A stretch of 60,550 nucleotides of DNA, filler included. It is 6 parts of 6 records of this genome, joined end to end, with 100 filler letters (N's around TTAATTAATTAA, not from the genome) between each part and the next. Parts side by side here need not be neighbours in the genome. Positions count along the whole stretch, not along the records: positions 47,244 to 60,550 come from DRR723986_7898; 5 more parts are not named here. One strand, written 5' to 3'. Positions 54,390-59,354 of the stretch are shown one piece after another (positions within the stretch are counted from its first letter, which is position 1; every line of letters starts with the position of its first letter). The translations under genes and the position numbers were made by a program. Below the pieces are notes generated by a model, which worked only from the letters and a program-made list of their open reading frames with translations, did no database searches and was not told the DNA's origin.

Positions 54390-54941
54390 TTATGGATGGG
54401 GTTCTGTCAGTGCCAGGAAATGTGCGGGAACGGCATCCGTCAGCCAGACGCCGTTCTCCGTTCTGTAAAACGTGTGCCCCTCCGCCTGCATTGCGCTGGC
54501 CGCGACCTGAAGAATTGCAGGTTTGCCGTGACGGCTTCCGACCTTGTGCGCGGTGTCGCGATCCGGTGACAGATGCACATGGTGCCGGGCCATAGGTTTC
54601 AGGCCTTCGGCCAGAATGGGCGGCAGAAAGCGTGTTGCCGTTCCGTGGAACAGGAACTCCGGAGGCTGTAAAGCTGTGAGGCCCAGTTCAATGTCAATTG
54701 AATGACCCTGACGTGCGCGAATGTGTTTGCGGTCTTCGGAGAACTCGAAGCGTTTCTTGTCGTTGGTCGCGACGATTCTTTCCAGCTGATCCCTTTGGCA
54801 ATCAAGGCCGAGGGCTCTGAAGGCGCCAAGGACATCAGCTACGTCAGCCCAACCGCTGTCTGACAGCATCAAACCGGCGTCTTCCGGTTTGTGTCTTAGC
54901 CAGAAAGACAGGCGTTTCGAGATCTTTGTGTCTGTTTTCAT
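54390..54941 (-). CDS. kptA: RNA 2'-phosphotransferase (Tpt1/KptA)
   Basis: SKRLSFWLRH, DKKRF, IRARQGHS, LFHGT, RHHVHLS, RHG, NGVWL. Confidence 0.96.
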   Translation of the reverse strand: MKTDTKISKRLSFWLRHKPEDAGLMLSDSGWADVADVLGAFRALGLDCQRDQLERIVATNDKKRFEFSEDRKHIRARQGHSIDIELGLTALQPPEFLFHGTATRFLPPILAEGLKPMARHHVHLSPDRDTAHKVGSRHGKPAILQVAASAMQAEGHTFYRTENGVWLTDAVPAHFLALTEPHP

Positions 54942-55066
54942 TGTATTTTTCTTTAAATGTATACTGTTTTCAAATTCTGCGCCCCCTGCGAAAGCGGGCG
55001 AGCGACCCTCAATCGAGGTGGTCTGGTGACAGGACCTGGACAGCCATGGCCTGCAAGGGCCACGCT

Positions 55067-55100
55067 GAAACAGAAACGGCGCAGGTTGCCCCGCGCCGTT
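55067..55100 (-). terminator. Terminator-like hairpin after slipin gene
   Basis: Minus strand AACGGCGCGGG-GCAA-CCTGCGCCGTT then TCTGTTTC. Confidence 0.65.
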
Positions 55101-55105
55101 CTGGC

Positions 55106-56260
55106 TCATGCCGCATTGTCGTCCCGAAGCCGGACGAGGTCGTTCATGAGACCTCCGGTTCCGTTGTGGACCGTGAGCCGGTCGACCTTGCCGGCGATGG
55201 CTTCAAGCGCTTCGAGCTCCTTGAGCCGAAGCATGACCGGGTTTTCGGCCATGACCTTGGCCGTGTTGAGAAGCGAACGGGTTGCGTTCGTTTCTTCACG
55301 GCGCCGGATCACGTTGGCTTCGGCTTCCTTTTCGGCTGCCACCACCTTGATGAGGATCTCGCGCATTTCGCCCGGAAGGATCACGTCCTTGAGGACGATG
55401 TCGGAGACCTCGACACCGATTTCAGCCATGTCGGCCTTGATCTTGGCGGCTGCTTCCGCGTTGACCTCCCCCTTCTTTTCAAGGATCTGGTCGAGCTTGA
55501 GCGCGCCGAGCTGCTTGCGGAACACAAGCTGCAAAGCCCGGTAGAGCGTGTCGGTGAAGTCCTTCACCTCGGTTGCGGCCTTCACCGGGTCAACCACACG
55601 GTAATCCGCGGAGAGGTTGATCCGGATGGTAACGCGGTCGAGGGTCAAGACTTCCTGACCGGTGACGTCGAGAGCCTGACGCTTGAGGTCGATGACCTTC
55701 TGCGTCACGGTTCGGCCTGCCTTCCAGAAGGCATGGACCCCGGCTTCAAGCACCTTGGTGAGCACGCCATCCATGAAGAGAAGGGCGACGCTACCGTCGG
55801 TCACCGGCACGATCACGAACTGCTGCGTCTGACGGGCATCCCCGAGCCGGCGCATGAGCTTCTGCCTGAGGGCCGGGTCGGCAGCCGTGTCGATGACCTC
55901 GAAGGTCCACGGGCCGGCATCCGTCCACAGGACAAGCCGCTCGTCCGGGCCAAGCACGGTGTGGATACGGTTGTCCCGTTCCACAATCGCCACTTCACCC
56001 GGTCCGGTCCGGATAACGGTCAAGTGCTCTTCGGCAACTTGGGGAAGCTTATCGAAGAGCGCCTTCTCGTAGGCCGACCGGAACTGGGGCATTGCCATCG
56101 ACTGGCGCTCGATCACCAGGGTGCCACGGCCATTCTCGAGGCTGTGTTCACCGGGTCCGAGAATACCCTGGAGCTCTCCCTTGCAGATGTGGAGGGCCCG
56201 TTCCGTTTCAGAAATCACTACGCGGGTTCGCCCGCGGATCTTGTCGAGAAAAGTCGTCAT
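55106..56260 (-). CDS. SPFH/band-7 (slipin) family protein
   Basis: Repeated ER.L....G.....L.PG.H units, DLKRQ.L...GQEVLT.D.V..R.N, KDVILPGEM, AN.I.RREET.ATRSLLNTAKVM..NP..LRLKELE. Confidence 0.93.
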   Translation of the reverse strand: MTTFLDKIRGRTRVVISETERALHICKGELQGILGPGEHSLENGRGTLVIERQSMAMPQFRSAYEKALFDKLPQVAEEHLTVIRTGPGEVAIVERDNRIHTVLGPDERLVLWTDAGPWTFEVIDTAADPALRQKLMRRLGDARQTQQFVIVPVTDGSVALLFMDGVLTKVLEAGVHAFWKAGRTVTQKVIDLKRQALDVTGQEVLTLDRVTIRINLSADYRVVDPVKAATEVKDFTDTLYRALQLVFRKQLGALKLDQILEKKGEVNAEAAAKIKADMAEIGVEVSDIVLKDVILPGEMREILIKVVAAEKEAEANVIRRREETNATRSLLNTAKVMAENPVMLRLKELEALEAIAGKVDRLTVHNGTGGLMNDLVRLRDDNAA

Positions 56261-56299
56261 TTCGATAATCCTTCCAATGCGCTAAGGCACGTGGTTGTC

Positions 56300-56647
56300 C
56301 TTTCCGGTGTTGAAGATGGTTGGAGGTTGAGGAAACCGGTCGCTCGTCATGAGGCGTCCGGGGTGAAACGATGAGACCCGAAGAGAGCACGAGGTCTCCC
56401 GGCGGGCCCTTGGCCAGAGGGCGTAGCAGCGGCAATGCGGGTTCCACCCGTTCGAAAACAGGCGGTTCCGGCAAAGCGGCGGCAGAGCCTTTGCCAAAGG
56501 CCGGGCGAAGCGACCTGGCGTCGGCGGTCAGGGCACTTTCACCCGAAGGCAAAAGGGCCAGTCCGCGTTCGCAAGACCTCTCCAGGTCCCCTATGGAACA
56601 GCTTGCATAGCTGCTGGCGTGACAGGCCAGTTCGGCGTTGGAGGCCG
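56300..56647 (-). ncRNA. Putative structured RNA / leader with multiple hairpins, several anticodon-stem-loop-like
   Basis: Dense hairpins including CGGC-CTCCAAC-GCCG, CTGGC-CTGTCAC-GCCAG, CAGC-TATGCAA-GCTG, GCCCT-CTGGCCA-AGGGC and a cUUCGg loop; no credible ORF. Confidence 0.55.
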
Positions 56648-56653
56648 TGTTTT

Positions 56654-56718
56654 TGGAGCGAGAGTTGAACTCGCGACAGTCGGATTAAAGGTCCGATGCT
56701 CTACCACTGAGCTATCCA
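56654..56718 (-). tRNA. tRNA-Lys(UUU)-like element with 4-bp truncated acceptor stem (pseudo-tRNA/tRNA mimic)
   Basis: TGGA TA GCTC-AGTGGTA-GAGC A TCGGA-CCTTTAA-TCCGA CTGTC GCGAG-TTCAACT-CTCGC TCCA; C at position 33. Confidence 0.8.
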
Positions 56719-56793
56719 TGGAGCACATCACAGGAGTCGAACCTGTTGCTTCCGGGGTACACTCCCGGCGTTCAACCGTTAAACTTCATGCGC
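56719..56793 (-). tRNA. Degenerate tRNA-like element (nominal anticodon UGU, non-canonical loop), encoded CCA
   Basis: GCGCATG AA GTTT-AACGGTT-GAAC G CCGGG-AGTGTAC-CCCGG AAGCA ACAGG-TTCGACT-CCTGT GATGTGC T CCA. Confidence 0.8.
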
Positions 56794-56810
56794 GATTGTC
56801 CGATCCTCCA

Positions 56811-56825
56811 GAACAGCATCCGTAC
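56811..56825. promoter_or_regulatory. Candidate alphaproteobacterial LexA (SOS) box
   Basis: GAAC-AGCATCC-GTAC matches GAAC-N7-G(A/T)AC; lies 17 nt upstream of the first tRNA-like element. Confidence 0.35.
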
Positions 56826-57163
56826 ATGAGTGGGCAGGGCCTGATCATGCGGGTGGCGAAAAATGGCCGAACCGTTGATGTCTGTGCCAGTATGGTGACC
56901 GGTGACGAGTTGATACTTCGAGAGCGGGTGCCAATGCAACCGGCAATTTCAAGAGAAGCGATGTTTGTTGCTAATGTGATACAGTATGTTGTATTTTTGT
57001 CACTTTTGCCCAGAGTGCCGGCTGTCGCCCTGGGCGGGGACTTTGGTTGGTTTGAAGCGGTTTCGGTGAAGAACCGTAAACCGCAATCTCCTCGACCTCT
57101 TGCGCCGGGAAGACGGCGAAGGCAAACTCCCGGCCAGATTGTGTTTCCGCCCTGCGAGGACCT

Positions 57164-57604
57164 ATGGCCAACAAACAGTCCCGGTTTCTGATCGATACCT
57201 ATTTTGCCGCCTTCAATGCAGGCGATACCAAGAAAATGGAAAGCCTGGTTGCCGACGACCTGATCCATGATGTCAACCAGGGCGAACGCCGTGTCGGCAA
57301 GGACAAGTTCTGGTCCTTCAACGTTCACATGACGCGCTGCTACAAGGAACGCCTCAGCGACATCGTGCTGTTCGTCAGTGAAGACGGGACACGGGCTGCT
57401 GCCGAGTTCATCGTCCATGGCAGCTATATCGGCACCGACAGCGGATTGCCGCCCGCGAACGGCCAGACCTACAAGCTGCCGGCGGGCAGCTTTTTCGAGA
57501 TCCGCAATGGTCAAATCGCCCGCATCACCACCTATTACAACCTTCAGGACTGGATCGACCAGGTGACGGAAGGTGCGGGTGAAAAAGTGCCGGAAGAGGC
57601 CTGA
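57164..57604 (+). CDS. SnoaL-like/ketosteroid isomerase-related protein
   Basis: YFAAFNAGD, HDVNQG, RAAAEF, RITTYYNL. Confidence 0.9.
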   Translation: MANKQSRFLIDTYFAAFNAGDTKKMESLVADDLIHDVNQGERRVGKDKFWSFNVHMTRCYKERLSDIVLFVSEDGTRAAAEFIVHGSYIGTDSGLPPANGQTYKLPAGSFFEIRNGQIARITTYYNLQDWIDQVTEGAGEKVPEEA

Positions 57605-57662
57605 ACCAAAACCCTGCTTCTGCGCGAGCAGAGCCGGACAGGCAAAATTCATTTGATCAATC

Positions 57663-57867: not shown

Positions 57868-58470
57868 TTGGCCAGAATACGTAACGAAGCTGCCTACGAG
57901 ACCGCAAAGACCCGTCTTCTGGATGTCGGTATGACGCTTATCCGGGAAAACAGCTTCGACGGCATCGGGATCAATGACGTGTTACGGGAAAGTGGTGTGC
58001 CGAAGGGGTCTTTCTACCACTACTTCGACACCAAGGAAGACTTCGGTCTCGAAGTGGCGCGTCACTACCACCGGGATCAGCTCGCTTTTGCAAAGGCCTG
58101 CCTTTCGGACCGCAAACGCTCGCCGGTGGAACGGCTGGAAGCATTTTTCTCCGGTGCCCGGGAAGGGATGAAGGACCGTGGCTACGCCCAGGGATGCCTG
58201 ATGTGCAACCTGTCGACGGAGCTGGCCGACCAGAAACCGGTCTTTCAGGCGGAGCTGGACCGTCATTGGCAGGCACTGACCGGTGAACTGGAAATCTGCC
58301 TGCGGGAGACGGATCTCTCCCGGATCGGACTGTCTCATCTCTCCCCGGCACAGGCTGCCGACTGGTTGATGAATTCGTGGAGCGGCGCGCTGACGAGAAT
58401 GAAGGCAAGCCGCAGCGACGAACCCCTGGCGCTGTTCATGCGCACAATCTTCAAGAAAGAAGGGAAATGA
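57868..58470 (+). CDS. TetR-family regulator (NemR-like)
   Basis: GINDVLRESGVPKGSFYHYF.TKE.FG, GCLM.NLS.E. Confidence 0.92.
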   Translation: MARIRNEAAYETAKTRLLDVGMTLIRENSFDGIGINDVLRESGVPKGSFYHYFDTKEDFGLEVARHYHRDQLAFAKACLSDRKRSPVERLEAFFSGAREGMKDRGYAQGCLMCNLSTELADQKPVFQAELDRHWQALTGELEICLRETDLSRIGLSHLSPAQAADWLMNSWSGALTRMKASRSDEPLALFMRTIFKKEGK

Positions 58471-59354
58471 AAATGACCACCCAAAAGACAATCCTGATTA
58501 CCGGTGCAAGTCGGGGTATCGGGTTTCTGACAGCCCAGAAACTCGTACAGGAAGGCCATATCGTTTATGCGGGCATGCGGGACCTGGATGGCAGAAACGC
58601 GGAAGCGGCCAAGGCGCTCAAGCTTTTTGCCGAAGGTCTTCCGGGCAAGCTTGTTCCGGTCGATCTGGATGTCGCTGACGAGAAAGGTGTCGAACGGACC
58701 GTCGCGGCGATCGAGACAGAACAGCCGATCGATGTTCTGGTCAATAACGCAGGCGTCATGCCTGTTGGTTTGACGGAAGGCTTCACCATGGAGCAGGCAA
58801 AGGATCTGTTCGACGTCAATGTTTATGGTGTCATGCATCTGACGCGGGCGGTGCTTCCCGCGATGCGGGCGCGGAAGTCCGGTCTCGTGATCAGTCTCAG
58901 TTCGGTTGCAGGCCGGTTCGGTATGCCATTCTTCGGCCTTTACTGCGCCAGCAAGTGGGCGATGGAAGCTTACTGCGAGTCGTTGCATTACGAGCTGGAG
59001 CCGTTCGGGGTCGAGTTCGTTCTGGTTGAGCCGAGTGGCCATGGCACTGATCTGGTGACCTCCGCCCCGGCTCCGGGTGATGCGGTGCGGGTTGGGCAAT
59101 ATGGCGATTATTCCAAGGGGCGCGACAGGTTGCTTGGCATGTTCCAGGGCATGTTCGATCAGGGTGAAGCCATCACCGATGCGGGCAACGTCGCAACCAA
59201 GATCCTTGAGCTGATCGCAATGGATGGATCGCGGCCTATCCGCACCCAGGTCGGGCAGGATATGGGTGTCACCGCCATCAACGAGGCAACCGCACCGATC
59301 CAGGCGCAGCTGGTGAGCGGATTGAAGCCGGTCTATCTGGGAGCAGCATCGTGA
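58467..59354 (+). CDS. Short-chain dehydrogenase/reductase
   Basis: TGASRGIG, NNAG, YCASK. Confidence 0.95.
   Translation: MKMTTQKTILITGASRGIGFLTAQKLVQEGHIVYAGMRDLDGRNAEAAKALKLFAEGLPGKLVPVDLDVADEKGVERTVAAIETEQPIDVLVNNAGVMPVGLTEGFTMEQAKDLFDVNVYGVMHLTRAVLPAMRARKSGLVISLSSVAGRFGMPFFGLYCASKWAMEAYCESLHYELEPFGVEFVLVEPSGHGTDLVTSAPAPGDAVRVGQYGDYSKGRDRLLGMFQGMFDQGEAITDAGNVATKILELIAMDGSRPIRTQVGQDMGVTAINEATAPIQAQLVSGLKPVYLGAAS

Follow-up and report, generated by a model that had tools for sequence, protein, structure and literature searches.

What are three small hairpins with anticodon-like loops doing between a pair of transfer RNA (tRNA)-like units and the gene of a slipin, a soluble protein with an SPFH/Band-7 domain? 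The question is raised by a Roseibium locus within the stretch of DNA analysed here, which is 60,550 nucleotides (nt) at its full length and is called the window below. The original prediction, made from the letters of this stretch, described the hairpins (here H1, H2 and H3) as stand-alone mimics of the Trp, Asp and Ala anticodon stem-loops, took them for a decoy or sensor array for anticodon nucleases or for the eroded remnant of a tRNA array, and named stem covariation among slipin loci and comparison with shuffled sequence as the checks to be made. Comparison of slipin loci leads us to propose, as the likely explanation, that H1-H3 are internal helices of one Band-7-associated, tRNA-mimicking RNA that is transcribed with the slipin.

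The hairpins are present at 56599-56647 on the minus strand, 3' of the tRNA-like pair, with the sequences claimed for them. H1 (56647..56633, CGGC-CTCCAAC-GCCG) has a 4-base-pair (bp) stem, is found in Roseibium only and starts 2 nt past the second tRNA-like module; H2 (56630..56614, CTGGC-CTGTCAC-GCCAG) has a 5-bp stem and an anticodon-like loop; and H3 (56613..56599, CAGC-TATGCAA-GCTG), with a stem of 4-5 bp, abuts H2 without a spacer. The minimum-free-energy fold (RNAfold) contains all three. The loop likeness was borne out in the nearest genome used for comparison (G001; 99% identical over the region and 99% complete): the H2 loop CTGTCAC is exactly its tRNA-Asp loop (RF00005 and ARAGORN), while the H1 loop CTCCAAC is one base off the Trp loop CTCCAAA and the H3 loop TATGCAA one base off the Ala(UGC) loop TTTGCAA (ARAGORN). 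It was also rightly foreseen that tRNA finders would miss the hairpins, as ARAGORN calls nothing at 56599-56647 and the Rfam tRNA model does not match there at E<=10; D arm, T arm and acceptor are absent, and H1-H3 do not form the cloverleaf of a genuine tRNA gene or array.

As a single sequence, H1-H3 are not beyond chance, and the signal comes only from related loci. Tandem triples of hairpins with at least 4 Watson-Crick pairs and 7-nt loops occur once in the whole window, at the H1-H3 site, and at least one such triple appeared in 20 of 100 dinucleotide shuffles of the window. The fold energy of the 71-nt H1-H3 segment is ordinary (z = -0.73; 51 of 200 shuffles fold as well).

Conservation of the hairpins among slipin loci

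Related loci were collected in two ways. When 61 relatives were searched at the DNA level, 27 genomes gave matches, in many cases through ordinary tRNAs alone, and twelve loci (L001-L012) were homologous over most of the region, including L007 from R. aggregatum IAM 12614, the slipin of which is 97% identical to that of the window. From a scan with the slipin alignment, in which 486 stretches encoding a relative were found (of 600 matched), the best 80 were fetched; they represent Roseibium, Mesorhizobium, Sphingopyxis, Rhizobium, Shinella, Labrys and many Rhodobacterales. A covariance model (R1) was built on 32 sequences from H2 (4 pairs), H3 (5 pairs) and the 5' strand of P1, a longer helix described below. 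R1 matches 52 of 87 sources at E<=0.01, spread over the Alphaproteobacteria, with one match per source and all matches upstream of the slipin; there is a single match within the 60-kilobase (kb) window, and one per genome in five of five Roseibium genomes. In every clade seen, the hairpins stand immediately behind the last tRNA-type module. Several Rhodobacterales have, after a single whole tRNA-like unit, first a hairpin with an anticodon-like loop, then one resembling a T arm and finally a third.

Compensatory changes were found in H2 and H3 of both Roseibium and Mesorhizobium (MAFFT alignments), and the H3 stem reads CAGC/GCTG in Roseibium, CACC/GGTG in Mesorhizobium, CCAGA/TCTGG in Sphingopyxis and CACG/CGTG in L072. 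In the model-fitted alignment (A3), 92.7% of cells are paired versus 25-61.5% with partners slid, and two-sided changes occur in 8 of 9 pairs (54 cells), values that 0 of 500 shuffles reach. The unfitted MAFFT seed alignment (A2) gives 89.2% versus 20.9-51.2%, again with 8 of 9 pairs changing on both sides. All four modelled pairs of H2 change in this way, as do four of the five in H3, where 25 rows have CG and 21 have GC at pair 4. The outer H3 pair is G-U in 19 of 48 rows, and these G-U pairs fit only the minus strand. Between the window and L007, all four differences within H1-H3 fall in loops and none in stems (aligned rows read by eye). As judged from these alignments, H2 and H3 are under selection. 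Thus the covariation check supported the hairpins, with pairs of H2 and H3 changing on both sides in 8 of 9 positions, and the shuffle comparison divided: the triple and its fold in the single sequence are not beyond chance, whereas the pairing among homologues was reached in none of the 500 shuffles.

A 7-nt loop is found in 42 of the 48 distinct rows for H2 and in 40 of 48 for H3. The H2 loops carry a pyrimidine (Y) at position 32 in 41 of 42 cases, U33 in 34 and A37 in 40; among the 40 H3 loops, Y32 is found in 40, U33 in 33 and a purine (R) at position 37 in 39. The joint pattern Y-U-NNN-R was counted by hand in 33 of 42 H2 loops and 32 of 40 H3 loops, or in 18 of 27 and 18 of 26 if only distinct loops are considered. 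The same pattern occurs in 24 of the 27 real tRNAs of G001 and in about 5% (34/640) of window hairpins with at least 4 bp and a 7-nt loop (both strands). Read in this way, H2 and H3 keep the anticodon-loop (U-turn) frame Y32-U33-NNN-R37, and the middle triplet varies freely: it is GAT in H2 of most Mesorhizobium and GTC, TCC, CTT, GTA, GAC, GCA or others in Roseibium, and CTGTCAC occurs as the H2 loop in the window row only. With 27 distinct 7-nt loops in H2 and 26 in H3 among the 48 distinct rows, the Trp, Asp and Ala identities are not conserved, and by this comparison the hairpins do not specifically mimic those three tRNAs. The caveat attached to the prediction, that loop length and sequence might not be conserved in homologous loci, proved half justified, since loop length and the flanking loop positions are kept and the triplets are not. 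Elsewhere in this RNA, helices end in UUCG or GNAC tetraloops, so that loops of the anticodon type are a peculiarity of the H1-H3 stretch. A tRNA anticodon stem-loop and H1-H3 therefore have in common a stem of about 5 bp, a 7-nt loop, Y32, U33 and a purine at 37; they differ in that H1-H3 have no surrounding D arm, T arm or acceptor, that H2 and H3 abut, and that the triplet is not conserved.

Eight of 14 distinct Roseibium sequences have a 4-5-bp H1 hairpin, with stems CGGC/GCCG or CCGG/CCGG. In L008, L009, L010, L012 and L035 the place of H1 is occupied by TCGGG-TTCRACT-CCCGR, with a further small hairpin before it, and H1 is absent from L011 and Mesorhizobium in the alignments. Intermediate forms such as that of L006 (CCGG-TTCACAC-CCGG), together with position and a short motif, suggest that H1 is a T-arm-type hairpin, now worn, from an incomplete third tRNA-like module. 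The notion of an eroded tRNA remnant fits H1 only, where the worn element would be a T arm and not an anticodon arm.

The proposed RNA from promoter-like site to slipin start codon

The proposed RNA would be about 645 nt long, with a promoter near 56939-56911 at one end and the slipin start codon (56260) at the other, and would be built from tRNA-derived modules: a pair of complete tRNA-like units that fit the prediction of a Band-7-associated tRNA, then a variable number of isolated tRNA-type arms, a linker of about 10 nt and a 218-nt domain closed by P1. Within it H1 would be a decayed and dispensable T-arm-type hairpin peculiar to Roseibium, and H2 and H3 would be conserved arms that extend the tRNA mimicry. 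We infer for them a role as partner-binding arms, in which they would present anticodon-loop-shaped surfaces to a tRNA-recognising protein; candidates are the oligomeric slipin, the Tpt1/KptA encoded with it, and further proteins of RNA repair or tRNA handling. The hairpins are not stand-alone, as they sit within one conserved transcript between the tRNA-like modules and the large closed domain.

The tRNA-like modules 1 (56722..56793) and 2 (56650..56721), both on the minus strand, abut each other and lie 390-533 nt upstream of the Band_7 gene on the same strand. Module 1 (Rfam tRNA, 38.7 bits; loop AGUGUAC) has no ARAGORN call; module 2 (54.9 bits) is called by ARAGORN as tRNA-Lys(UUU), with three acceptor pairs flagged as non-standard in the Rfam tRNA match. 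In the RF00005 ranking of G001, the copy of module 1 is the lowest of 53 matches and that of module 2 the 49th. Among the matches listed, ARAGORN finds one or two tRNA-like genes upstream of the slipin in 59 of 65 loci, and their anticodons differ almost everywhere. Besides the tRNA matches and a weak YrlA match (discussed below), no Rfam family was found in the region. The modules of the window and L007 are 65.8% and 59.7% identical; the corresponding values are 92.2% for H1-H3, 93.4% for the P1 domain, 97.0% for the 3' leader and 95.2% for the slipin coding sequence. Such low module identity inside flanks of 92-97% looks like cassette-like replacement or very fast evolution.

Upstream of the modules lies a conserved 5' leader of 112 nt (56794..56905, minus strand), which contains a hairpin covarying among 12 Roseibium loci (CATGA/TCATG to CGTGA/TCACG) and is covered by the RNA contig of X10. 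Because this leader is conserved and its hairpin covaries, the structured RNA starts well before the tRNA-like pair. A promoter-like sequence, TTGCAT-N17-GTATCA (56911..56939, minus strand), is inferred just before it and is conserved in Roseibium, with TTGM kept in 13 of 13 loci and KTATS in 12 of 13 (MAFFT); a sigma-70 scan did not flag 56911..56939. Sigma-54 and heat-shock promoter readings of the upstream region were dropped after inspection by eye. Further upstream, around 56965-57008 (minus strand), most Roseibium loci have a palindrome of the type GTTGC-N6-GCAAC, degenerate in the window, which may be an operator.

Helix P1 of 14 bp is formed by a 5' strand (56577..56590, minus strand; GGGACCTGGAGAGG) and a 3' strand (56386..56373, minus strand), and closes the 218-nt domain 56590..56373. 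RNAalifold predicts it both from 14 Roseibium and from 22 Mesorhizobium sequences; it begins 6-15 nt past H3 and finds its partner about 200 nt downstream. The sequence of P1 differs widely among clades, yet its strands still pair: at least 14 bp are reached by the best helix joining the two zones in 64 of 85 sequences versus 3 of 255 shuffles, and 70 of the 85 best helices are P1, the other 15 having been set aside by eye. The domain also holds a long UUCG-capped hairpin with covariation, and a hairpin whose loop carries the self-complementary UUUUCGAA; the latter recurs in several genera (also in L060, L065, L068 and L078) and, from its self-complementarity, might serve dimerisation through loop-loop contacts. 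Pairing of the H2 loop with the H3 loop was considered by eye and dropped, as 4-nt matches are too easy to find. Two open reading frames (ORFs) of 114 and 71 amino acids (aa) in the spacer were rejected, having no codon-position signal in GC content, and covarying helices explain the conservation.

The 3' leader (56261..56372, minus strand) has, by alignment, a hairpin and a ribosome-binding site before the slipin AUG. In Roseibium, a CCUU within 56261-56330 (minus strand) has an AAGG upstream of it and the GGAAGGA ribosome-binding site downstream, and may pair with one or the other, which makes a translational switch by Shine-Dalgarno sequestration possible in this genus; such sequestration is not evident in the Mesorhizobium alignment of the 3' leader.

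Contigs from RNA sequencing (RNA-seq) bear on the extent of the transcript and show neither processing, abundance nor strand. One of 1754 nt spans exactly 55141-56894, and that of a second study ends at 56846 and runs through the slipin; both are unbroken across the tRNA-likes, the hairpins and P1 into the slipin, so that the leader, tRNA-likes, hairpins, P1 and slipin lie on one assembled transcript. The contig ends are just downstream of the promoter-like site and agree with it. The intergenic stretch further upstream is uncovered up to 57151/57165, and a separate contig starts at the SnoaL-like gene beyond it. No terminator-like site was found between 56261 and 56650. RNA runs X4 (a DNA-like 72-kb contig) and X1 (a break at 56778-56807 with loose ends) were set aside as uninformative.

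The slipin, KptA and neighbouring genes

The soluble SPFH/Band-7 slipin (384 aa; 55106..56260, minus strand; Pfam Band_7, 3.8e-28) is followed by the RNA 2'-phosphotransferase Tpt1/KptA (239 aa; 54390..55109, minus strand; Pfam PTS_2-RNA, 3.2e-50), the start of which overlaps the slipin end by 4 bases. The KptA protein scores 238.1 bits with NCBIfam NF002014, the cut-off of which is 239. KptA follows the slipin in 6 of the 80 fetched loci, all of them Roseibium, and the other downstream genes checked are unrelated to RNA repair; for these two reasons the conserved unit is taken to be the RNA plus the slipin. PADLOC places neither slipin nor KptA in defence families. As neither RtcB (PF01139) nor Ro/TROVE (PF05731) gives a match in G001, the locus is neither a Ro-Y RNA system nor an RtcB operon. 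The slipin-RNA-KptA module stands without RtcB, the ligase usually discussed with it.

A structural model of slipin residues 1-155 (55796-56260; predicted local distance difference test score 89.8) shows two small beta modules. Foldseek gave no match for this N-terminal domain at E<=0.001. VIA-align matches it to the N-terminal beta portion of SPFH proteins at Z 5.4-5.9, scores that the tool regards as common, and the first beta module weakly resembles the N-terminal beta part of SPFH domains.

On the other side of the RNA, a SnoaL-like gene (57164-57604, plus strand) diverges from the RNA promoter and is followed by a TetR-family regulator (57868-58470, plus strand) and a short-chain dehydrogenase (58377-59354, plus strand), the longest ORF of which overlaps the TetR ORF by about 90 bases. 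The candidate 'orf288' (56786-57652, minus strand) is antisense to the SnoaL-like gene and was rejected as a gene.

Known systems and alternative explanations

Burroughs and Aravind (2016) predicted a tRNA beside Band-7 proteins, the Band-7-associated b7a-tRNA, which has not been experimentally validated according to the part of bioRxiv 10.1101/312249 that deals with it. To the extent that this source describes it, the tRNA-like partner of Band-7 proteins is thus a published prediction, and the present locus agrees with it in that a tRNA-like gene and a Band-7/SPFH gene adjoin each other on one strand, in an RNA-repair-type neighbourhood. As far as the same description goes, our locus differs in its tandem tRNA-like pair, its isolated anticodon-like arms, its 218-nt domain and the one transcript shared with the gene; the RtcB neighbourhood is not found here (no PF01139 in G001), and Tpt1/KptA follows the slipin instead. 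Our additions are the conserved anticodon-like arms H2 and H3, the reading of H1 as a decayed T arm, the Alphaproteobacterial P1 closing helix and the cassette-like divergence of the modules. None of these was described in the literature searched, the scope of which did not extend to Burroughs and Aravind (2016) and in which b7a-tRNA is named only in the bioRxiv preprint.

YrlA and other bacterial Y RNAs, which act with Ro (Rsr), share with the locus the arrangement of a tRNA-mimicking non-coding RNA module beside the gene of a scaffold protein, in RNA-repair operons. A weak YrlA match (RF02553) covers the T arm of module 1 and the D arm of module 2 with 28.4 bits, and four relatives give 25-34 bits; the gathering score, at 69, is far higher, and no TROVE/Ro gene was found in G001. 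Moreover, YrlA has no anticodon loop in the portion of the published account used here, whereas the Band-7 RNA multiplies anticodon-like loops. The slipin layout can also be set beside that of the vault particle, which consists of major vault protein (MVP) and vault RNA, the protein having beta modules, an SPFH-type domain and a helical tail. The slipin is laid out alike, with small beta modules, an SPFH domain, a helical tail and a small structured RNA as putative partner; the fold evidence is weak, with MVP reached at a Foldseek probability of 0.57-0.72 and a VIA Z of 2.9.

Several other explanations of H1-H3 can be weighed against an internal place in a tRNA-mimicking RNA. GC-rich hairpins directly after tRNA-like genes might form an intrinsic terminator or attenuator that ends the tRNA-like transcript, an idea with almost no probability left to it: no U tract follows, and it is excluded because of the lack of a terminator-like site at 56261-56650 and because contigs from two studies read through into the slipin. 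Very improbable as well is the account of H1-H3 as functionless leftovers of a tRNA array that decayed, or as hairpins arising by chance in GC-rich DNA. It would fit a triple that is not beyond chance in the single sequence and an H1 that is lost or replaced within the genus, and it is hard to reconcile with the persistence of H2 and H3 across genera with compensatory changes, or with the confinement of the four window-L007 differences to loops; by covariation it is excluded for H2 and H3, and for H1 it may hold. The hairpins might instead be cis-acting elements of the messenger RNA (mRNA), with the tRNA-likes cut off by tRNA-processing enzymes and H1-H3 left at the 5' end, where they would stabilise the slipin mRNA or mark a processing site. 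Their start 2 nt after module 2, their sharing of a contig with the slipin and their constant place after the last tRNA-type module in all clades seen speak for such a role, which we nonetheless regard as unlikely, since it leaves unexplained both the large conserved P1 domain and the use of 7-nt Y-U...R loops where stable tetraloops serve elsewhere in the RNA.

The decoy or sensor for anticodon nucleases, in which the loops of H1-H3 and of the tRNA-like modules would bait tRNA-cutting toxins or, once cleaved, would report damage and turn on slipin and KptA, is in our estimate equally doubtful. The loops do carry the anticodon-loop frame and match real tRNA loops of G001, an enzyme of RNA-repair type, Tpt1/KptA, comes after the slipin in the window and in 6 of the 80 fetched loci, and triplets vary and modules diverge faster than their flanks (60-66% versus 92-97% against L007), as an arms race would predict; a similar idea was raised for YrlA in the part of Hughes et al. 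(2020) that concerns it. Yet no anticodon is conserved that would point to one nuclease in particular, a freely varying triplet is just as well expected from neutral drift in unconstrained loop positions, the stems have only 4-5 bp and H1 is dispensable, and neither protein is placed by PADLOC in defence families nor is RtcB found in G001. In a bolder form, for which we see a slim chance, the Band-7 RNA would be a bait array that displays changing anticodon loops on its whole tRNA-like modules and on its isolated arms, module turnover would record the arms race, and cutting of the bait would trigger or feed an RtcB-free repair response. If this is true, a bait cut on a transcript shared with the slipin and the RNA 2'-phosphotransferase would be the trigger or the substrate of repair.

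Several points weigh against our preferred reading of H1-H3 as internal helices of a tRNA-mimicking Band-7 RNA. H2 and H3 were found at E<=0.01 in only the 52 of 87 loci given above, and Rhodobacterales and others have one hairpin or tetraloop hairpins at their place, so that the pair is not universal. In the window itself H1 and H2 fit Y32-U33-R37 and H3 carries A33 in place of U, and H1 and H3 have only 4 sure pairs each; where relatives have T-arm-like forms at H1, a third tRNA gives no Rfam match at E<=1. The compared sequences are related, such that the loop and pair counts overstate the number of independent events, and the shuffle counts are not probabilities; five rows of A3 (L065, L068, L069, L082 and L086) are apparently shifted by one position, by which the loop counts are slightly lowered. 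The contigs cannot show processing, and the hairpins may end on an RNA separate from the tRNA-likes or the mRNA. Finally, Foldseek and VIA-align comparisons of the slipin N-terminal domain gave no RNA-binding fold and exclude none.

Until now, the RNA partner of bacterial SPFH/Band-7 repair-type modules had only been predicted, as a single tRNA-like gene. The Band-7 RNA proposed here would be a much larger modular RNA, with a closing helix and with arms that have the shape of an anticodon loop and a drifting triplet, and its covariance model finds the locus once per genome. H2, H3, P1 and the fast-evolving cassettes would provide handles on the binding partners of the slipin-RNA pair, and on tRNA mimicry that may serve repair, regulation or defence.

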